DNA from: a virus
Taxonomy: Duplodnaviria > Heunggongvirae > Uroviricota > Caudoviricetes
Direction: 5' to 3' (one strand)
DNA: 47,366 nucleotides
Virus record (IMG/VR): IMGVR_UViG_2630968533_000004
Shown: positions 1,641 to 42,266 of the stretch, one piece after another
Position numbering within the stretch: the stretch's first letter is position 1
Layout of the letters: the number at the start of each line of letters is the position of its first letter
Notes under the pieces: generated by a model
What the model was told of the DNA's origin: nothing
The model's input: only the letters and a program-made list of their open reading frames with translations
Database searches by the model: none
Position numbers and translations under genes: made by a program

Positions 1641-4112
1641 TTAAGAATCAGCCTGACTCGGGATCAGTTTTTGCCAGATAGCTGAAACGTATTTTGCCTG
1701 GTAACGGGCGTCATCAAGTGCATTATGGCGCTCACCTTCGAATGGAATAGCCGTTCTGGCATCGAAGTCTATGGCTTTCCCCAGCTCAACGATTGTGCGT
1801 ACATCGCGATCGTTGTAGTAACGCCACGGGCAGGGGATCCCCTGCCGTTCGTATGAACGGCGCAAAATCGTGTTGTCGAAGTTGGCTCCATTTCCCCAGA
1901 CATGAACAAAAAATTCACCGGAGTTTTCGTCGATAAATTCCCGCAATTGTAACAGTGCATCATCTAACGGGATTTCATCGGTCATAATGGCAGATTGCGC
2001 TTCGCGTGATTGTTTAAGCCACCATTTAATGGTGTCCCGATCAATGACTCCGCCAGCAGTTTCCAGATCGATAGTCTTACTAAATTCCGGTCCCATATCT
2101 CCGGTTTGCGGATCGAAAAATATTGCACCTATTGAGATAATCGGGGCATCGGGATTTTTTCCCATGGTTTCAAGGTCGATCATCAGATGAATCCCCGCTC
2201 TGCTGGTGGATGTGAGATTATGATGACCGTTCACCTTAATTAAGGGATCTGACGCCTCGCCAGTTTCACTATCGCTGGCATGATGCTGATTGCTGCCAGT
2301 GTTCTCCTTGTGCTGATGCGCAGTGCCTTCCATTTCCTCCAGATCATTTTTCTGAACTTCAGGCTGATTCTCTCCATCGAATATTTCCTGGTATGTTGCG
2401 TCACCCATCACCGCACCACAATCAGGGCAGTTGCCGCCACCGCTCTGACCGCAGGCGGTGCAGATCTTTTCCGGTTCCTGTTGCACTACTGGTTCAGGTT
2501 GTTTCGTTTCTGGCTCGTTTTGTTGCGTATTTGGGCTGTTTTGTTCCGCTTTCTGGTCGTTCTGTTCCGTTTCTTGCTGGTTCTGGTTCACAGAATCGCG
2601 GGTCTGGATCCCCTTAATCCATTTCGGATCATTCGGGTCGCTAATCCCTTCAACAAATTCACCACGTGATACTGCAAGCAGTTCATCGGCGTCAGGCTGG
2701 CTGATATTGGCTGCCTGCATAATTTTGTTTACTTCGTCAGCGGTAACTTTTACTGACCCTGGTTGTGCGGTCGTGTCAGATGCACCAGTATTTTGTTGTG
2801 AACCTGAGTATGTACCGTTTTTGCGGGCGAAATATTCTTCTTTCGTGATTTCAGTAGCCCCAGCAGACAGCGCCTTATCCAGACCAGAAAGTTTATTTGC
2901 GCGACCGTATTTTTCGCCATCCTTGTCGGTGAAGAGGAAGTAGAACGGCCCCTCACGTTCTACAGATGGTTCGACTTCCACTTTGCATTCGGTTTTTTCG
3001 TTGTCTGGAATTGCCGTTTCCACTGCATCAGTTTCTGGTACTGGCGACGAGAGAGTATCAGTTGCGCTCTGATTTGTTCCTTCATCTTCAAACACGCCCT
3101 TTGTAGTCAGGTATTCAGTAATGTATTTGTTCAGTGCCACAGGGTCTTTGTGAATGTCGATCGGACGTTCACGGACAAGGCCAAAAATAGTCTGGCGGTC
3201 GTAGCGAAGGGCATCAGGCTGTTTGCGCATTGATGCCGAGATACGCTTCCAGTCTTCGCGGTCGTTGTCGATAACTTCATTTTTTGCCCAGCGATGGATG
3301 CTGCCGTCAATGTTTCCGGCATCCACATCACCAGGCCAGAGAGCGTAGGCCAGTTCGTCATCCAGTGTTTTCCATGTCTGCTTGTATTCGCGATGAATGG
3401 CAGCAATGACCGGGTTGATTTTTCCTGTTGAATTTTCAGTGTGCTGTTGATTGGCTCTGGCGCGGGCGAGATCAACAACAGACGTGTATTTTCCGGCTTC
3501 CTTGCGTTCACCTTCGCGACGTTTTTTCCAGATGCGCATCTCTGCCTGAATTTCGGGCCATTTGGCACCAGGCTTACATTTATGCTTAACCCACCCGATG
3601 GCATGCAGCTTAAGCTCCGGATACATAGCGTTAACTTCTGGCATTTTCATCAACGCTTCAACGATATGGCCGTCGAATGTTGCCATGTCTTCCTGCAACA
3701 ATTCCTGTGCGCTAATCACCATATCAACAGTGATGTTTTCACATGTGTCGAACTTAACCATGACAGCGTTCTGTACTTCAGGGGCTAGGTTGTCAAAAGT
3801 GACGTTCATCGGATCGGATTCAGTCTCGACCGGGACAAAGGAAGCAGACGCCTCATCCCAGCGGTTTTCCTGCATATATTCAGCATCCCAGGAATCGAGG
3901 GCAGGGCGGGGTATACCGGGTTTATCCTCGCAAACAAGAAATTTATAAGCGCAGTCCTGAGCAGCCGGATAATGTTCCAGGAATTGCCAGTGAAATTTTG
4001 CGCGGGCGCGACGTTCATCACCGGCTTCAATGGCAGTGGCTACAGCGACGGCACCTTCTTCCTTTATTGCCTGTTCGTCCGGAATGGCGGCGCAAATAAA
4101 GACTTTACTCAT
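1641..4112 (-). CDS. Large exonuclease with C-terminal DnaQ-like (DEDDh) 3'-5' exonuclease domain
   Basis: 823-aa ORF; C-terminus carries MIDLETMG (Exo I), WGNGANFDNTIL (Exo II) and HNALDDARYQAKY (Exo III, H-x4-D) motifs; central CTACGQSGGGNCPDCG zinc-ribbon-like motif and Q/N/E-rich low-complexity linker. Confidence 0.75.
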   Translation of the reverse strand: MSKVFICAAIPDEQAIKEEGAVAVATAIEAGDERRARAKFHWQFLEHYPAAQDCAYKFLVCEDKPGIPRPALDSWDAEYMQENRWDEASASFVPVETESDPMNVTFDNLAPEVQNAVMVKFDTCENITVDMVISAQELLQEDMATFDGHIVEALMKMPEVNAMYPELKLHAIGWVKHKCKPGAKWPEIQAEMRIWKKRREGERKEAGKYTSVVDLARARANQQHTENSTGKINPVIAAIHREYKQTWKTLDDELAYALWPGDVDAGNIDGSIHRWAKNEVIDNDREDWKRISASMRKQPDALRYDRQTIFGLVRERPIDIHKDPVALNKYITEYLTTKGVFEDEGTNQSATDTLSSPVPETDAVETAIPDNEKTECKVEVEPSVEREGPFYFLFTDKDGEKYGRANKLSGLDKALSAGATEITKEEYFARKNGTYSGSQQNTGASDTTAQPGSVKVTADEVNKIMQAANISQPDADELLAVSRGEFVEGISDPNDPKWIKGIQTRDSVNQNQQETEQNDQKAEQNSPNTQQNEPETKQPEPVVQQEPEKICTACGQSGGGNCPDCGAVMGDATYQEIFDGENQPEVQKNDLEEMEGTAHQHKENTGSNQHHASDSETGEASDPLIKVNGHHNLTSTSRAGIHLMIDLETMGKNPDAPIISIGAIFFDPQTGDMGPEFSKTIDLETAGGVIDRDTIKWWLKQSREAQSAIMTDEIPLDDALLQLREFIDENSGEFFVHVWGNGANFDNTILRRSYERQGIPCPWRYYNDRDVRTIVELGKAIDFDARTAIPFEGERHNALDDARYQAKYVSAIWQKLIPSQADS

Positions 4113-5974: not shown

Positions 5975-6382
5975 TTATTGATGCTTGTTGCGTTTGCGAG
6001 CCTCTAATAGCTCGGTGAACAGGCGATTAAAATTCTCAACGCGGGCGCGGAGTTCGCTGAGTTGTGCTTGTTGCTCTGATTTAGGAAGTGCGCGATACAA
6101 ACGCAGCATCTCTAACTCATCTTCCGATAAGTCTAAGGCACTATCGAGTGAAACAGGGGGAGCTGGTGTTTTGTCCTCGTCGCCAAACAGTATCCAGGTT
6201 GGTGAACATTGCAATACCTCGGCGAGGCGATGCAAATTTTGCCCGCGCGGGGCTGTATGGTCACTTTCCCATAATGAAATTGATGAGCCAGATACGCCAG
6301 CAGCTTTGCTTAAACCGTTTTGACTTAAGCCTACCTGCTTACGTCTTTCTCTAATGCGTTGACCTAAAGTTTTCTCGTTCAT
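5975..6382 (-). CDS. dicA: DicA-type HTH (XRE-family) repressor
   Basis: Internal Met of ORF 5975..6433 gives 135 aa MNEKTLGQRIRERRKQVGLSQNGLSKAAGVSGSSISLWESDHTAPRGQNLHRLAEVLQCSPTWILFGDEDK...; HTH motif plus C-terminal region resembling recalled DicA; divergent from a Cro-like gene. Confidence 0.85.
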   Translation of the reverse strand: MNEKTLGQRIRERRKQVGLSQNGLSKAAGVSGSSISLWESDHTAPRGQNLHRLAEVLQCSPTWILFGDEDKTPAPPVSLDSALDLSEDELEMLRLYRALPKSEQQAQLSELRARVENFNRLFTELLEARKRNKHQ

Positions 6383-6432
6383 ATTTAGATATCTTAATAA
6401 CCCTTGACTTGAGATTCCTTGAGTGATTAGCA

Positions 6433-6446
6433 TTGAGAAAACTCAA
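6433..6446. promoter_or_regulatory. Palindromic operator-like site TTGAGAAAACTCAA in dicA-dicC intergenic region
   Basis: Sits 14 bp upstream of the dicC ATG, between the divergent repressor genes; same core as 5898..5909. Confidence 0.5.
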
Positions 6447-6459
6447 TATTGGAGGTGCG

Positions 6460-6687
6460 ATGTTTAAATCAGACGTAATTAATTTTTACGGTACGAAAGC
6501 CAAAGTAGCGAAAGCTGCTGGCGTTGACCCATCTGCTGTTTCTCAATGGCAAGAGCTGGTTCCTGAAGGTCGCGCGATGCGTCTACAGGAGGCATCTGGC
6601 GGCGAGCTTCTGTATGATCCCAAGGTTTATGACGAATATCGTAAGACGAAGCGGGCGGGGCGGTTGAACAATGAAAATCACTCCTGA
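6460..6687 (+). CDS. dicC: DicC-like (Cro-like) regulator
   Basis: 75-aa protein MFKSDVINFYGTKAKVAKAAGVDPSAVSQWQ...; GGAGG RBS 5 nt upstream; divergent from dicA. Confidence 0.75.
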   Translation: MFKSDVINFYGTKAKVAKAAGVDPSAVSQWQELVPEGRAMRLQEASGGELLYDPKVYDEYRKTKRAGRLNNENHS

Positions 6688-7192
6688 ACAGGCTCGTGAG
6701 GCTCTGGATGCCTGGATATGTCGACCAGGAATGACACAGGAGCAGGCGACGATATTAATCACTGAAGCATTCTGGGCTTTGAAAGAGCGCCCGAACATCG
6801 ATGTTCAGCGTGTCACAGATGAAGGTGGCGCGGTTGATCAGCGAGCGCTTGGCGTTAATCGAGTGAAGATATTCGAACGCTGGAAGGCTATCGACACTAG
6901 GGATAAGCGTGAAAAGTTCACGGCGCTAGTGCCTGCAATTATGGAGGCTATCCGGATTAATGATTTCAGGTTGTATCGTGAAATTAGTGACGGAAAAAGC
7001 ATCACGTACATGATCGCCGGGTTAAACAAAGAATATGGCGATGTGGTGGAGTCCGGACTGCTTTTTGCTGATCCTGCCGTAGTGGATCGTGAAACTGACG
7101 AACTTATAGAAAAAGCAATTGCTTTCAAACTTGCGTATCGACAGCAATACCAACAAAAAGCTGGATGGAATTATGAGCCTTCTTTTTGCTGA
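6671..7192 (+). CDS. YdaT-like regulatory protein
   Basis: 173-aa ORF in the CII-equivalent position after the Cro-like gene; segment RVKIFERWKAIDTRDKREKFTALVPAIMEAI resembles the recalled YdaT family pattern. Confidence 0.5.
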   Translation: MKITPEQAREALDAWICRPGMTQEQATILITEAFWALKERPNIDVQRVTDEGGAVDQRALGVNRVKIFERWKAIDTRDKREKFTALVPAIMEAIRINDFRLYREISDGKSITYMIAGLNKEYGDVVESGLLFADPAVVDRETDELIEKAIAFKLAYRQQYQQKAGWNYEPSFC

Positions 7193-8138
7193 ACGCCCAC
7201 TGGTTATAAACACACAGCTTGCGATGAAGATTGGCTTAAATGAAGCCATTGTGTTGCAGCAGTTGCATTACTGGTTGAGAGATACCAATTCCGGCATGGA
7301 ATGTGATGGTGTTCGCTGGATTTACAACACAACGGAACAATGGCTGGAACAGTTCCCATTCTGGTCAGAGTCAACGTTAAAGCGCGCGTTTGCAAGTCTG
7401 AAAACGCTGGGGCTTTTGCGTTGTGAAAAGCTCAATAAATCAAAGCGCGATATGACCAATTTCTACACGATCAACTACGGGAGCGAGCTTTTAGATGGTG
7501 GCAAATTGAGCGAATCCATCGGTTTAAAATGCGCCGCTCCATCAGGTCAAAATGACACGATGGAAGAGGTCAAAATGAAACGCTCCATTGGTTCAAAACG
7601 ACCCAATGTCATCGGGTCAAAATGGCCTGATGATCTTACAGAGAATACAACAGAGATTACTACAGAGAATAAAAACACTTTTCGTCCGGAAGCTTCGCAA
7701 CCGGACCCGCAGACCGCTGAACAGGATTTTTTAACCCGGAACCCCGACGCGGTTGTGTTTAGTGCGAAAAAACGCCAGTGGGGTAGCAGGGAGGATTTGG
7801 CGTGTGCGCAGTGGATTTGGGGGCGGATCGTGAACCTTTACGAACAGGCTGCCAGCGACGATGGAGAGATCATGCGACCAAAAGAGCCTAACTGGACAGC
7901 CTGGGCCAATGACGTGCGCACAATGCGGATGCTGGATGGCAGAAGCCACAGACAAATTTGCGAAATGTTTGGTCGGGTACAGCGAGATCAATTCTGGGTA
8001 AAAAACATCATGAGCCCGTCAAAACTCCGCGAAAAATGGGACGAACTGGTCATCCGCCTGGGACGTTCACCTGTACAGCGTTGTATGAATCATATTTCTG
8101 AACCGGATACAGAAATTCCGCCTGGTTTCAGAGGATAA
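7173..8138 (+). CDS. Replication initiation / replisome organiser protein (DnaT-like C-terminus)
   Basis: N-terminus MSLLFAERPLVINTQLAMKIGLNEAIVLQQLHYWL is winged-helix-like; C-terminus WANDVRTMRMLDGRSHRQICEMFGRVQRDQFWV is DnaT-like; gene contains iterons. Confidence 0.6.
   Translation: MSLLFAERPLVINTQLAMKIGLNEAIVLQQLHYWLRDTNSGMECDGVRWIYNTTEQWLEQFPFWSESTLKRAFASLKTLGLLRCEKLNKSKRDMTNFYTINYGSELLDGGKLSESIGLKCAAPSGQNDTMEEVKMKRSIGSKRPNVIGSKWPDDLTENTTEITTENKNTFRPEASQPDPQTAEQDFLTRNPDAVVFSAKKRQWGSREDLACAQWIWGRIVNLYEQAASDDGEIMRPKEPNWTAWANDVRTMRMLDGRSHRQICEMFGRVQRDQFWVKNIMSPSKLREKWDELVIRLGRSPVQRCMNHISEPDTEIPPGFRG
7521..7625. repeat. Origin-like iterons (5 copies of about GGTCAAAATG, roughly 23-bp spacing) plus downstream AT-rich ACAGAGA repeats
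   Basis: ggtttaaaatg, ggtcaaaatga, ggtcaaaatga, ggttcaaaacga, ggtcaaaatgg read directly; followed by ttacagagaatacaacagagattactacagagaataaaaac; lies inside the replication gene like lambda ori inside O. Confidence 0.55.
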
Positions 8139-8178: not shown

Positions 8179-8580
8179 GTGGCAAAAGTTTTTACACAAG
8201 AAGAGCGGGAAAAAATTAAAGGGCAGGTGGTGGAACTCGTGCGCCAGAGCGGTCGTGAGACGTTACGGCAACTGGAAGCTAAAACAGGTGCGACTAGATA
8301 TCTGATGAGCGTTCTTGCCAGAGAGCTGGTAGCCAGTGGCGATGTATACAACTCCGGCTACGGGTTATTCCCGTCTGAACAGGCGCGTAAGGACTGGCAA
8401 AACGCCCGCAAAAAACTATCGAGGGCAAAGGTGAAGAAAACAGCTGTGGTTGATCCGGACCTTATCTGGTCGTTACCTGATGGAGAAATACGTCGCTACG
8501 ACAGTCGCCTAAACATAATCTGTCGCGAGTGCCGGATGAGTGAAGTTATGCAGCGCATACTGGCATTTTATCAGGGATAA
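8179..8580 (+). CDS. Hypothetical protein
   Basis: 133-aa ORF with GTG start preceded by AAGGGGGA RBS; basic; function unknown. Confidence 0.5.
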   Translation: MAKVFTQEEREKIKGQVVELVRQSGRETLRQLEAKTGATRYLMSVLARELVASGDVYNSGYGLFPSEQARKDWQNARKKLSRAKVKKTAVVDPDLIWSLPDGEIRRYDSRLNIICRECRMSEVMQRILAFYQG

Positions 8581-8779
8581 TGTTAGGTATTTTAGACGTT
8601 ACTAGATTAAAAAGCATTAGTTCAGGAGTGAATTGACATTCTCATTTTTCATGGCACAGGGTAGATCTGGCGTGGTTGTCCGCTTTGTGCCAGAAGCGGA
8701 CGTTACAATACAATCACTATGCTAATGCGCATTGATATGTGATATAACAATAATCAACCGTTCAAAAAGGAGCATTTAT

Positions 8780-9802
8780 ATGAGCAGGATGATAATTGAT
8801 ACAAATATTCTTTACTCACTAGTTGGTCTGTCGACAAACCAAAAAATAATTAACTCCCCTATAGATCAATTCAAATTATCCATTACGACACCATCACTCA
8901 TAGAAGTGATCTCTAAATATTGCAATGACTTAGGGGCTGTAAAAAAATGCATTAGCCCAATCATAAACGGAAATATTGAACTAATTAGCATTGGTCATAC
9001 TCCAATCTCAAATGAATTTCTTTATAGGTTGCATTTTTCAGACAAAATAGACGAAGTAAAAGATATTATTGATAATGTTAGAGCACTAAAAATATCTAGA
9101 GAGGCTGAGTTTTATAGGTTCATACTCATACTGGTTGTCTCTGGTTTGTTTGAGGTTATTAGAGAAGATGGATACAAGTTTGATAACGATGTACAAAATC
9201 AAAGTCAACTTAGTCTTGTGCAGACTCTACTTGAATCTAATATGGAATTAATTTTAGACTTCTTTAAAGATGAGTTGCGGAATGGATATATTAATGGAAA
9301 TGAGCAGCAATCAGCTTTGAAAGCTTTTGAAACCATGCTTATCGGACTCCTACATGCTTTTCATGTCAACTATCATATGATTAAAACTGACACAGTTAAC
9401 ATTTCCGGAAGCCAAGACAGACTCAAAAATCTGTATGATAGTATAAAAAATGATAATTTTGATAAAAAGTTTAAAAAATATATGGAGAATCCAATATCCC
9501 TTGCCTGCAAAAAAAAACACGAATCAGTAGTTGATAACTACCTGAAAGAAATGGAGGAGGGGATTTCTGGCGCTCGTGGGCTTACTAAGAATTCGTTGAG
9601 CTTTCTAATGAGCAAGGTTGAGGATGCATATAAAAATGGTCGTAAATTACGAAAAAATGACATATTTGACTTTCTAATAGTTATTTCTCTAAATATGCCA
9701 GACACTTTGATTTTAACACTTGATAAAGGTTTTTTAAAAGACCTTAAAGATCTTCACCCTAACAGCTATAAAAAGTGTCTGGATTTCGGTTTTGTAAATT
9801 AA
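8780..9802 (+). CDS. AT-rich cargo protein, candidate PIN-like nuclease fold (possible defence / abortive-infection gene)
   Basis: 340 aa from ATG at 8780 with AAGGAG RBS; N-terminus MSRMIIDTNILYSLVG resembles the start of PIN domains (catalytic Asp in DTN), C-terminus DTLILTLDKGF resembles a PIN C-terminal strand; K/N/I-rich composition, visibly lower GC than flanking phage genes. Confidence 0.65.
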   Translation: MSRMIIDTNILYSLVGLSTNQKIINSPIDQFKLSITTPSLIEVISKYCNDLGAVKKCISPIINGNIELISIGHTPISNEFLYRLHFSDKIDEVKDIIDNVRALKISREAEFYRFILILVVSGLFEVIREDGYKFDNDVQNQSQLSLVQTLLESNMELILDFFKDELRNGYINGNEQQSALKAFETMLIGLLHAFHVNYHMIKTDTVNISGSQDRLKNLYDSIKNDNFDKKFKKYMENPISLACKKKHESVVDNYLKEMEEGISGARGLTKNSLSFLMSKVEDAYKNGRKLRKNDIFDFLIVISLNMPDTLILTLDKGFLKDLKDLHPNSYKKCLDFGFVN

Positions 9803-39887: not shown

Positions 39888-42266
39888 GTGGATATGGCAG
39901 CAGTAAAAATCTCAGGTGTGCTGAAAGATGGTGCGGGAAAACCAATACAGAACTGCACTATTCAACTGAGGGCAAAGCGTAACAGCACCACGGTACTGGT
40001 GAACACGGTGGCTTCTGAAAATCCGGATGAAGCCGGACGTTACAGCATGGATGTTGAGTATGGCCAGTACAGCGTCACCCTGCTGGTTGAAGGTTTTCCG
40101 CCTTCACATGCCGGGACCATTACCGTCTATGAAGGCTCCAGACCAGGTACGCTGAATGATTTTCTCGGTGCCATGACGGAAGATGATGTCATGCCGGAGG
40201 CATTGCGTCGTTTTGAGGCAATGGTGGAAGAAGTGGCACGCAACGCCGAAGCCGCCTCTCAGAGCGCAGCGGCGGCAAAGAAATCCGAAACTGCAGCGGC
40301 ATCATCAAAGAACGCGGCGAAAACCTCAGAAACGAATGCAGCTAATAGTGCACAGGCGGCAGCGGCCTCACAGACTGCATCGGCAAACTCCGCGACAGCA
40401 GCCAAAAAATCAGAAACCAACGCGAAAAATAGCGAGACAGCCGCAAAGACGAGCGAAACCAACGCAAAGTCCAGCCAGACGGCAGCGAAAACCAGCGAAA
40501 CGAATGCCAAAGCCAGTGAAACTGCGGCAAAAAACAGCCAGGTTGCAGCAGCCCAAAGCGAGAGCGCGGCAGCCGGTTCTGCGACTTCAGCAGCCGGATC
40601 AGCAACTGCTGCGGCTAACAGCCAGAAAGCTGCGAAGACGAGTGAAACTAACGCAAAGTCCAGCCAGACGGCAGCGAAGACCAGCGAAACGAATGCCAAA
40701 GCCAGCGAAACTGCGGCGAAAAACAGCCAGGATGCAGCAGCCGAAAGCGAGAGTGTTGCAGCTGGTTCTGCAAGCGCGGCGGCTGCTTCTGCCACTGCAT
40801 CAGCTAACAGTCAAAAAGCAGCAAAAACCAGTGAAACCAACGCAAAGACAAGCGAGACTGCGGCAGCTAACTCGGCGAAAGCATCCGCTGCAAGCCAGAC
40901 AGCGGCTAAAGCAAGTGAAGATGCAGCCAGGGAGTACGCAAGCCAGGCAGCTGAGCCGTATAAACAAGTTTTGCAGCCACTGCCTGATGTGTGGATACCG
41001 TTTAATGACTCGATGGATATGATTGCAGGATTTGGCCCGGGATATAAAAAAATAACAGTGCGCGATGATGTGGTCACTATACCATCCGACAAAATTGTCC
41101 CGTTTTCCCGCGCGAGTTCCGCGACCTATATCAATAAGTCCGGCGCTCTTACCATTGCAGAAATTAATGAGCCACGTTTTGAAAAAGAAGGGCTGTTAAT
41201 TGAAGGGCAGAGAACTAACTATCTAAAAAATTCTAATACACCGGAATTGTGGTACTACCACAGTTTACTGGCGAAAGAGTATGGGGTTGATAATTACGGT
41301 TTTAATTATGCAACCGTCACCGTGACAGACAGTCTTGTAGGCACAACCAGTAGTTATCAGATTCATAGTGTAACTGGAGAGAACAGGTTTTCTCTGTCCA
41401 TCGGTGAAACCTGCACTTTTTCTGCCCGCTTTCGTGGAGTTAATTCACGTTGTCGCGTCCATATATCTCTTGTTATTGGCGAAAATGTTAAAACATCCGT
41501 TGATGTATGTCTGGAGCCAGATACAGGTGAGGTTAAGGCGTACGGTAATAAGGCGCTGGTGACATTCAGAACGGAAAAACAGGGGGACTGGTGTTACTTT
41601 GAAACAACATATACCGCCGCAGAGAATATTGACGAAGTGGTATGCGGTTTTTTTATAACCAATCCTGAAGATGGTGGTTTTTCTTCTGATTCGTCATTAA
41701 CAATGACTACGCCGCAAATTGAAAAAGGGCCATGCGCTTCATCGTTTATTATTTCCGGAAACACACCAACCACGCGCGCCAGTGATATGGTTATTTTTTC
41801 AACCAGAAATAACATAAGTTCTGTCCCTTTAAGCTGTCTTGTTGAAATACATAAAAATTGGGACTCTACGCCAAATCAGGCCCCACGAATTTTAACCACT
41901 ATTGGCGTGGCGACTAATGATGAACAACTGGTATTGGCTTTCAGGACGCCTACAAGTCCGGATGTAGAACCTTTACCTTATGTTCAGTTTGGAGTGAGAT
42001 CTGCATATCTTAGTCCATCTGTGAAGGCCGGGCGCAAAATGATTGCTGGTTTTGTCTGTAATAGCTCGACTGAATTTCGTTGCTGTTGTAATGGTTACCT
42101 GTCACCTGTTCAGACTTCGTCATGGAAGAATACCGGAGCTGCACATGAAATACGTATTGGGGGAACTTCTGCTGGAGGAGAACGTCACTTGTTTGGTCAC
42201 GTTCGTAACCTGAGAATATGGCATAAAGAATTAACTGATGCGCAAATGGGGGAGTCAGTAGAATGA
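39888..42266 (+). CDS. stf: Side tail fibre protein (Stf-like) with Ala/Ser/Thr-rich repeats and distinct C-terminal domain
   Basis: N-terminus AVKISGVLKDGAGKPIQNCTIQLRAKRNSTTV... is lambda-Stf-like; central SETNAK/AAKTSE repeats; C-terminal third is AT-richer with no lambda-like sequence. Confidence 0.85.
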   Translation: MDMAAVKISGVLKDGAGKPIQNCTIQLRAKRNSTTVLVNTVASENPDEAGRYSMDVEYGQYSVTLLVEGFPPSHAGTITVYEGSRPGTLNDFLGAMTEDDVMPEALRRFEAMVEEVARNAEAASQSAAAAKKSETAAASSKNAAKTSETNAANSAQAAAASQTASANSATAAKKSETNAKNSETAAKTSETNAKSSQTAAKTSETNAKASETAAKNSQVAAAQSESAAAGSATSAAGSATAAANSQKAAKTSETNAKSSQTAAKTSETNAKASETAAKNSQDAAAESESVAAGSASAAAASATASANSQKAAKTSETNAKTSETAAANSAKASAASQTAAKASEDAAREYASQAAEPYKQVLQPLPDVWIPFNDSMDMIAGFGPGYKKITVRDDVVTIPSDKIVPFSRASSATYINKSGALTIAEINEPRFEKEGLLIEGQRTNYLKNSNTPELWYYHSLLAKEYGVDNYGFNYATVTVTDSLVGTTSSYQIHSVTGENRFSLSIGETCTFSARFRGVNSRCRVHISLVIGENVKTSVDVCLEPDTGEVKAYGNKALVTFRTEKQGDWCYFETTYTAAENIDEVVCGFFITNPEDGGFSSDSSLTMTTPQIEKGPCASSFIISGNTPTTRASDMVIFSTRNNISSVPLSCLVEIHKNWDSTPNQAPRILTTIGVATNDEQLVLAFRTPTSPDVEPLPYVQFGVRSAYLSPSVKAGRKMIAGFVCNSSTEFRCCCNGYLSPVQTSSWKNTGAAHEIRIGGTSAGGERHLFGHVRNLRIWHKELTDAQMGESVE
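40440..40820. repeat. Tandem direct repeat (about 2 x 189 bp) inside stf
   Basis: Block starting near 40443 (gcaaagacgagcgaaaccaacgcaaagtccagccagacggcagcgaa...) recurs near 40632 with a few substitutions. Confidence 0.6.

Follow-up and report, generated by a model that had tools for sequence, protein, structure and literature searches.

Some replication origins lie inside the gene that encodes their own initiator. This is the case in RepA_N plasmids, whose origin iterons are found inside the rep gene, and in lambdoid phages, where an origin inside an O-like gene is the ordinary, textbook layout. In lambda, whose A+T-rich region carries ACAAAAGA-type purine repeats, the origin occupies the part of gene O encoding the linker that joins the DNA-binding N-terminal domain to the C-terminal one; phased, dyad-symmetric iterons (annotated at O codons about 117-145) are followed by the A+T-rich stretch and then by a palindrome. 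The SPP1 initiator G38P binds direct repeats beside an A+T-rich unwinding element inside its own gene 38 (oriL), as well as a second region, oriR (PMC6316719), and ORF20 of phage 80alpha is not complemented in trans, suggesting an embedded origin (PMC5499656). Here we describe such a block in the Caudoviricetes record IMGVR_UViG_2630968533_000004, a stretch of 47,366 nucleotides (hereafter the window) which, judging from its sequence, belongs to a lambdoid phage or prophage of the mEp460 type; over the 1020 bases surrounding the repeats in question it is 100% identical to Escherichia phage mEp460_ev081. Positions 7494-7706 of the window, within the linker-coding part of an O-like initiator gene, very probably form the vegetative replication origin of this phage, with the three-part layout of lambda. 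The apparently undescribed part of this origin is the conservation of the 12-bp tandem repeat (12-mer) in its A+T-rich stretch.

As in lambda, the array of the window is flanked by sequences encoding an N-terminal and a C-terminal domain, in the corresponding part of the gene, and the C-terminal domain is homologous to that of O (BLASTP E = 3e-28, 34% identity over 148 amino acids (aa)). This position, along with a periodicity exceeding what the protein needs, supports the lambda-like origin that a previous sequence-only reading of the same DNA had proposed to lie within the replication gene. The iterons are all promoter-proximal to the A+T-rich stretch and an inverted repeat is found beyond it, as a lambda-type origin requires. 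The window differs from lambda in having six 23-bp iterons of another sequence, a 12-bp tandem repeat not present in such form in lambda ori, no P gene (a DUF977 gene comes next) and a DnaT-like tail appended to the initiator. Moreover, lambda O matches Pfam Phage_rep_O (PF04492) at 5.7e-36, whereas the window protein has no Pfam match at E <= 0.01.

The iteron array (7494-7632) consists of six 23-bp units with the core GGTCAAAATG and partial dyad symmetry. Five had already been noted as repeats about 23 bp apart, and a repeat search recovers these five in register over 7503-7632 (start-to-start distances of 23, 23, 23 and 24 bp), the unit itself really being about 23 bp long. The sixth, upstream, is weaker (core GGCAAATTGA at 7500), and its position reads GAGGTCAAAGTGA in mEp460_4F5 and Klebsiella MC05; iteron 5, the best palindrome, is kept in relatives belonging to several enterobacterial genera and to Edwardsiella. 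The window has three exact copies of the 10-mer GGTCAAAATG, all within the array (7545, 7568 and 7615), with degenerate cores at 7521 (GGTTTAAAATG) and 7590 (GGTTCAAAACG). Because matches with one mismatch are not enriched window-wide, the iteron signal resides in clustering and phasing. At a lag of 23, self-identity over 7497-7635 reaches 0.526 (about 0.25 at other lags), and none of 5000 protein-preserving synonymous-codon shuffles reached this value (mean 0.368, maximum 0.491). Since the 23-bp period is not divisible by 3, one DNA core is translated in all three frames (GQN, VKM and SKR/SKW), and the linker peptides therefore constitute no protein repeat. The peptides quoted in the sequence-only reading as a repetitive linker were correct, but their repetitiveness is a result of the DNA repeat. 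Selection acts on the iteron DNA itself.

Directly after the last iteron, the A+T-rich stretch in which three ACAGAGA repeats had been noticed is a tandem array of three 12-bp units (pattern ACAGAGAnTAmw), read in frame 0 as TENT-TEIT-TENK. Its G+C content is 30%, compared with 48% for the initiator gene, and no 40-bp stretch of the gene is less stable (-45.6 vs a window mean of -56.1 kcal/mol); no self-pairing is predicted for it as single-stranded DNA. A search of Rfam at a permissive threshold gave no match, and promoter and terminator scans of 7300-7900 found none. The 12-mer was also compared by eye with an IHF site, a DnaA-box and a DnaA-trio, none of which fits.

The conservation in homologous genes that the sequence-only reading expected of an origin is found: all relatives examined, close and distant, keep the array at the same position in the gene, with an iteron sequence that follows the class of N-terminal domain. 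The 12-bp array is nearly invariant among initiators only 20-50% identical in protein. To look at it independently of its own sequence, 80 genomic loci were collected by the N-terminal domain alone, from Enterobacterales, Pseudomonas, Proteus, Xenorhabdus, Gilliamella, Comamonas and Desulfuromonas as well as from Bacillus, Geobacillus, Anoxybacillus, Brevibacillus and Staphylococcus; nearly all have 2-5 in-frame 12-mers directly after the last iteron. When the unit is defined at the peptide level ([T/P]-E-x-[T/S]), at least two units are present in 47 of 65 genes chosen by their N-terminal domain, and their codons are all but fixed. In all 142 cases GAG encodes the glutamate of the units, while elsewhere in the same genes GAG occurs 636 times and GAA 844 times (43% GAG; p = 3e-49, with no phylogenetic correction); for Firmicutes only, the figures are 27 of 27 against 172 GAG and 343 GAA (33%). 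The first threonine is ACA (132/132), the variable residue (N, I, T or S) is AnT (120/121) and the last threonine is ACT or ACA (118/120), so that only one nucleotide of the 12-mer, in second codon position, is free. Bacillus phage 0105phi7-2 has the unit ACAAAGAnTAC, which replaces the glutamate by lysine with the DNA pattern kept. Selection in the 12-mer is therefore on nucleotides, as the fixed codons and this variant both indicate.

A second set comprises viral contigs with an exact match to 25 bases of the 12-mer array (>120 loci). Wherever the reading frame is complete, the element lies in a long open reading frame (ORF) with initiator-like features. These viral initiators cluster into five N-terminal and nine C-terminal classes. 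Each N-terminal class has its own 4-6 iterons phased at about 23 bp, with the sequences GGTCAAAATG, GGGCAAATTGC, GGGACAAnTTGTCCC (a clean palindrome), GGGAAAC and ATGAGGAAAAACCACAT, and the iteron sequence changes together with the N-terminal class. N- and C-terminal classes form mosaics with breakpoints at the 12-mer (N3-C1 vs N3-C2; N4-C3/C6; N2-C4/C5/C7). A near copy of the lambda ori palindrome comes after the 12-mers in class N4-C3; the 12-mer array is therefore the positional equivalent of the A+T-rich region of lambda. The 12-mer also persists whatever helicase-loading strategy accompanies it (P-like, DnaC-like, DnaC plus DnaB, G39P/G40P-like, or none). As to the iterons, their cores across the N-terminal family are variants of one palindrome, GGTCAA-A-TTGACC (L186, L076, L190 and others), which is perfect in Gilliamella, L186 (CCGGTCAAATTGACCGG), and reads CTCAATTTGAAC in Geobacillus. 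A shared palindrome of this kind would fit a conserved dimeric winged-helix reader with class-specific flanks.

Searching with the element by blastn retrieves 122 phage records from many genera (including Acinetobacter, Bacillus, Klebsiella, Stx phages, Staphylococcus, Vibrio, Burkholderia, Xanthomonas, Erwinia, Geobacillus and a Synechococcus phage), and the annotated function under the matches is nearly always that of a replication or initiator protein. One match, in phage Aclw_8, was considered as a non-coding copy and rejected, as it falls in an unannotated gap whose non-coding status is not demonstrable. Phages of the SPP1/80alpha type are among the carriers: Staphylococcus phage 37 and Bacillus phages PM1 and 0105phi7-2 have the 12-mer array after their own iterons, but they differ from the window in encoding a loader, with or without a helicase, and in their C-terminal domain, Phg_2220_C. 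This domain is also found in G38P, in the phage 37 initiator and in class C4 relatives sharing the same N-terminal domain (9.4e-17); the window initiator has no Pfam match to it. SPP1 oriL itself was rejected as a carrier, having GACACGAAAAA-type repeats and no canonical unit.

The third part of the block is a G+C-rich palindrome (7684-7706) which, by its place, is the equivalent of the palindrome to the right of the A+T-rich region in lambda ori. In 30 distinct relatives its consensus is GTCmGGTTsC-N3-GsAACCnGAC, and pair 9/15 is G-C in 22, C-G in 6 and T-A in 2, without a single unpaired case. The covariation score is 0.118, compared with 0.032 in shuffles (0/500 reach the observed value), and it collapses once the pairing is offset by one to three columns. 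Since the compensating changes couple unrelated residues (Ala/Gln, Pro/Glu, Ser/Lys), a constraint on the DNA is indicated.

The iteron and 12-mer unit does not occur solely within initiator genes. Small mobilisable Bacillus plasmids such as pBSG3 (NC_014104.1) carry an orphan phage-type origin block (L215:735-880), homologous to the interior of the phage PM1 initiator gene (L210:2830-3130) and made of three PM1-type iterons (CCTACAGGGAAAGA), three ACAGAGATTACT units and about 45 bp beyond. Stop codons are found just upstream in the PM1 frame, and there are no initiator domains or initiator gene around it. The unit has therefore been kept as DNA outside a coding context. The orphan could be a decoy titrating the phage initiator, or a means of amplification during infection.

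Three other explanations of these repeats have to be considered. The one that fares best, though we regard it as unlikely, is that the 12-mers are no recognised unwinding element, their uniformity coming from their being a recombination joint between N-terminal/iteron and C-terminal modules, or an mRNA signal. The mosaics do break at the element, and the element is always in a transcribed and translated frame 0. However, it is conserved among Proteobacteria, Firmicutes and a cyanophage although the N-terminal domains are 50-60% identical or less, and synonymous sites in the 12-mer should therefore be strongly diverged. It is, in addition, kept with the iterons in the non-coding pBSG3 orphan, coincides with the stability minimum, and is associated with no Rfam match, promoter or terminator.

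Somewhat less likely again is that the iterons bind the initiator for autoregulation, copy-number control or incompatibility, the true origin being elsewhere. Plasmid iterons also act in control. The second binding region of G38P, oriR (PMC6316719), could be taken in the same sense. Against this, the core motif forms a cluster nowhere else in the 47-kb window, the stability minimum and the palindrome flank the array exactly as in lambda ori, and iterons, 12-mers and palindrome are conserved as one unit. Finally, that the repeats are a by-product of a slippage-expanded, low-complexity protein linker with no role as DNA is very improbable: the region does encode a predicted disordered linker, the 12-bp unit does amount to four codons (a TExT peptide repeat) and natural variants lacking 31 aa (four iteron periods) do exist, but the period is out of phase with codons, with the core in three frames and a periodicity that synonymous shuffles never reach, the 12-mer codons are fixed across phyla though the free position admits radically different residues and E may be replaced by K, the pBSG3 copy is out of frame, and the palindrome shows covariation of DNA bases that links unrelated residues.

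The variants in question are 290-aa initiators (proteins P0015, P0017, P0018, P0021 and P0022, compared with window 7517-7609). In the alignment of P0018, exactly 31 residues are missing, that is 93 bp or four iteron periods (23+23+23+24), an in-frame, repeat-mediated deletion with about two iterons left.

An origin at 7494-7706 is thus favoured over these alternatives, and it corresponds to aa 108-178 of the initiator. This protein matches PHROG 391, 'replication initiation O-like', with E = 1e-92 (aa 17-321, profile positions 11-298 of 298), and its gene is 100% identical to the 'Primosomal protein I' coding sequence of phage mEp460_ev081; NCBI records of the family are mostly named 'hypothetical protein'. 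In an AlphaFold2 (AF2) model, a winged-helix-like N-terminal domain and a helical C-terminal domain are separated by aa 108-174, which are without structure and coincide almost exactly with what the iterons and 12-mers encode. RepA_N initiators (RepA of pSK41/pTZ2162) likewise have a winged-helix N-terminal domain, and their structures 4pql, 4pt7 and 5kbj are weak fold matches to this low-confidence model (E about 0.1), but they have no sequence similarity to the window initiator. No fold-based conclusion on the C-terminal domain or DnaT was drawn, given non-significant Foldseek matches and a low-confidence model.

The last 21 residues of the initiator resemble the extreme C-terminus of DnaT. 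Thirteen of them are identical to E. coli DnaT (2ru8), with the motif SEPDxxIPPGFRG, and the DnaT chains in the PDB (6aep, 2ru8 and 9zbt_D) match residues 301-321 only. The NCBIfam DnaT equivalog NF002770 similarly covers only aa 302-321 (profile positions 160-179, 14.9 bits for a cut-off of 201). No similarity was found to the N-terminal domain or linker of DnaT, and none is detectable by sequence to its three-helix core binding single-stranded DNA. Of the DnaT-like C-terminal domain suggested in the sequence-only reading, it is therefore the final 21 residues that match DnaT, whereas the domain itself is lambda-O-like. The remark that no DnaC- or P-like loader gene follows can be extended to the whole window, in which no DnaB-, DnaC-, P- or G39P-like ORF is found.

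To see how the tail relates to helicase loading, 124 non-identical initiators were surveyed for loader or helicase genes within 3 kb downstream. Where a P-x-G-F-R/K tail is present, 57 initiators have no such gene and 9 have one (in all cases a DnaC-like gene only); where it is absent, the numbers are 31 without and 27 with (DnaC+DnaB, DnaC-like alone, lambda-P-like or G39P/G40P-like). Tail and absence of loader or helicase are thus associated (Fisher p = 6.5e-5, uncorrected for relatedness). The nine exceptions (L033, L061, L062, L083, L093, L102, L113, L124, L126) have a 248-aa DnaC-like gene starting 9 nt past the initiator stop, and the tail is therefore no simple replacement for a loader. 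The suggestion that loader recruitment may rely on the C-terminal end has correlative support, in that tailed initiators are depleted for adjacent loader or helicase genes. A relationship of the DnaC-like genes to the IstB gene of IS21 was rejected, as they start 9 nt past the stop and are followed by same-strand genes including a DUF977 homologue. In L033, one further gene lies between the DnaC-like and DUF977 genes; the window phage lacks both the DnaC-like gene and this further one.

The order of tailed initiator then DnaC-like gene in these nine relatives is that of the E. coli dnaT-dnaC operon (PMC5778457), for whose products no physical interaction is documented (PMC5778457). Class N3 offers a further comparison: in some phages its N-terminal domain comes with a tail-less C-terminal domain and with DnaC and DnaB genes, while in others it comes with a tailed C-terminal domain and no loader or helicase gene in the available 2.4 kb downstream. 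It is therefore the C-terminal module, not the origin-binding module, that tracks the loading strategy. Most economically, the tail would couple the initiator to DnaC(-DnaB), host or phage. A full-text literature search for the PGFRG tail motif gave nothing relevant, and a 2026 preprimosome structure paper gives no role for the extreme C-terminus of DnaT.

Initiators of classes C3 and C6 (L013, L016 and relatives) have neither tail nor loader gene. They share a different C-terminal extension (...NTVERD...RMSE..G...F/W..IWKQATE...), which may be another host-recruitment module, and are followed by a Dam-type methylase gene.

A mechanism can be sketched from these elements. Dimers of the winged-helix N-terminal domain would bind the six phased iterons, imperfect palindromes around GGTCA-AAA-TGrCC, and the resulting nucleoprotein complex would destabilise the adjoining 36-bp array of 12-mers (ACAGAGAnTACw). 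We propose that this array is the element for DNA unwinding and helicase entry: the helicase is probably loaded on a single strand exposed there, and recognition of the 12-mers is probably sequence-specific. The G+C-rich palindrome would bound the opened region. Host DnaB-DnaC would presumably be recruited through the C-terminal part of the initiator, that is the lambda-O-like domain and the 21-residue DnaT-like tail. The role given to the 12-mers is drawn by analogy from the repeated sequences of DNA unwinding elements (DUEs) that are bound by DnaA and plasmid Rep proteins: the latter bind repeated single-stranded DNA within their DUEs (PMC10797057), and a winged-helix Rep binds the iterons as duplex DNA and, in the DUE, one of the strands (PMC10797057, PMC4081077). 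The oriC 13-mers and DnaA-trios, and the DUE repeats of plasmids (TrfA, RepE), are likewise short tandem repeats in the least stable part beside the duplex sites of the initiator. They vary between organisms, however, whereas the 12-bp unit of the window type lies in a coding frame and is conserved in sequence across phyla, N-terminal domains and loader types.

Taken together, we tentatively suggest, as a possibility that we rate at somewhat below even, that the unit ACA-GAG-AnT-ACw is a sequence-specific origin-opening or helicase-entry element, apparently undescribed and common to temperate-phage initiators of Proteobacteria, Firmicutes and cyanophages, and that the 21-residue DnaT-type tail is a portable coupler of the origin-bound initiator to host or phage DnaC(-DnaB). 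A full-text literature search found no report of the 12-mer DNA or of the TENTTEITTE peptide, although an earlier description in the subscription literature is possible.

Several points weigh against the reading of the locus as a lambda-like origin. The viral loci were ascertained by an exact 25-mer of the element itself, and since the 12-mer lies at the junction of shuffled N- and C-terminal modules its uniformity could partly reflect recombination. Both the codon and the covariation tests use related sequences with no phylogenetic correction. Dyad symmetry is clear in iterons 2, 4 and 5 but poor in the other three (0, 1 and 3), and the instability of the A+T-rich stretch, at the 97th percentile of the window, is no extreme. 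The AF2 model has low confidence (mean predicted local distance difference test (pLDDT) of 52, from a shallow 12-sequence alignment), and Foldseek comparison of it with the PDB gave winged-helix matches only, none significant. A DnaC-like gene is found directly downstream of nine variants of the same tailed initiator. Lastly, the literature searched contains no origin-function experiment on mEp460-type phages.

The origin assignment, in itself unsurprising, is useful for annotating an initiator family without Pfam coverage and for constructing mini-replicons. That the 12-mer is kept through swaps of DNA-binding domain, C-terminal domain, loader type and host points to a common recognition event at origin opening, which would span a very large group of phage replicons; if our reading is true, the 12-mer, embedded in a reading frame, would correspond in phages to the DnaA-trio or the oriC 13-mers. 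The association between tail and absence of loader provides a handle on how DnaT and loader-less initiators engage DnaB-DnaC, and the tailed initiators directly upstream of a DnaC-like gene are a further clue. Were the tail reading true, the DnaT C-terminus would have a partner that can be tested, and the dnaT-dnaC pair would be of phage ancestry. Table 1 lists the features of the locus.

Table 1. Features of the putative origin, the initiator and the surrounding genes (window positions unless given as aa of the initiator)
Feature	Position	Strand	Sequence or remarks
Iteron 0	7494-7516	+	GATGGTGGCAAATTGAGCGAATC; weak copy, in register, 23 bp upstream of iteron 1
Iteron 1	7517-7539	+	CATCGGTTTAAAATGCGCCGCTC
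Iteron 2	7540-7562	+	CATCAGGTCAAAATGACACGATG; dyad arms CATCAGG/CACGATG; core read G-Q-N
Iteron 3	7563-7585	+	GAAGAGGTCAAAATGAAACGCTC; core read V-K-M
Iteron 4	7586-7608	+	CATTGGTTCAAAACGACCCAATG; dyad arms CATTGGTTC/GACCCAATG; core read S-K-R
Iteron 5	7610-7632	+	CATCGGGTCAAAATGGCCTGATG; best palindrome; core read S-K-W
Three tandem 12-bp units	7638-7673	+	ACAGAGAATACA, ACAGAGATTACT, ACAGAGAATAAA; Tandem Repeats Finder (TRF) and repeat search
G+C-rich 23-bp palindrome	7684-7706	+	GTCCGGAAGC-TTC-GCAACCGGAC; very stable
DnaT-like C-terminal tail coding sequence	8073-8135	+	VQRCMNHISEPDTEIPPGFRG; tail ends ..RCMNHISEPDTEIPPGFRG
Initiator N-terminal domain, winged-helix-like	aa 1-106		
Initiator disordered linker (predicted)	aa 108-174		AF2 pLDDT 23-35
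Initiator lambda-O-like C-terminal domain	about aa 190-296		
Initiator DnaT-like tail	aa 301-321		
cI-like repressor gene	5975-6433	minus	local gene order
P22-Cro-like gene	6433-6687		
cII/YdaT-like gene	6671-7192		
O-like replication initiator gene, 321 aa	7173-8138	+	phrog_391
DUF977/Ren-like gene	8179-8580	+	PF06163, E = 6e-27; phrog_142; next downstream of initiator; not a helicase loader

Just past the replication genes, a 356-aa ORF (8732-9802, +) has no match in Pfam, NCBIfam or PHROGs; mEp460_ev081 has a different gene there, on the other strand, and this ORF may be a variable cargo or accessory gene. Two further repeat arrays of the window are unrelated to the origin. Tandem repeats with periods of 21, 42 and 189 bp are found at 40394-40858, inside a 792-aa ORF of the late region (39888-42266), and a 21-bp unit is repeated four times at 2499-2582 in an 823-aa ORF (1641-4112, minus strand), which sits where the mEp460 record annotates an exonuclease.

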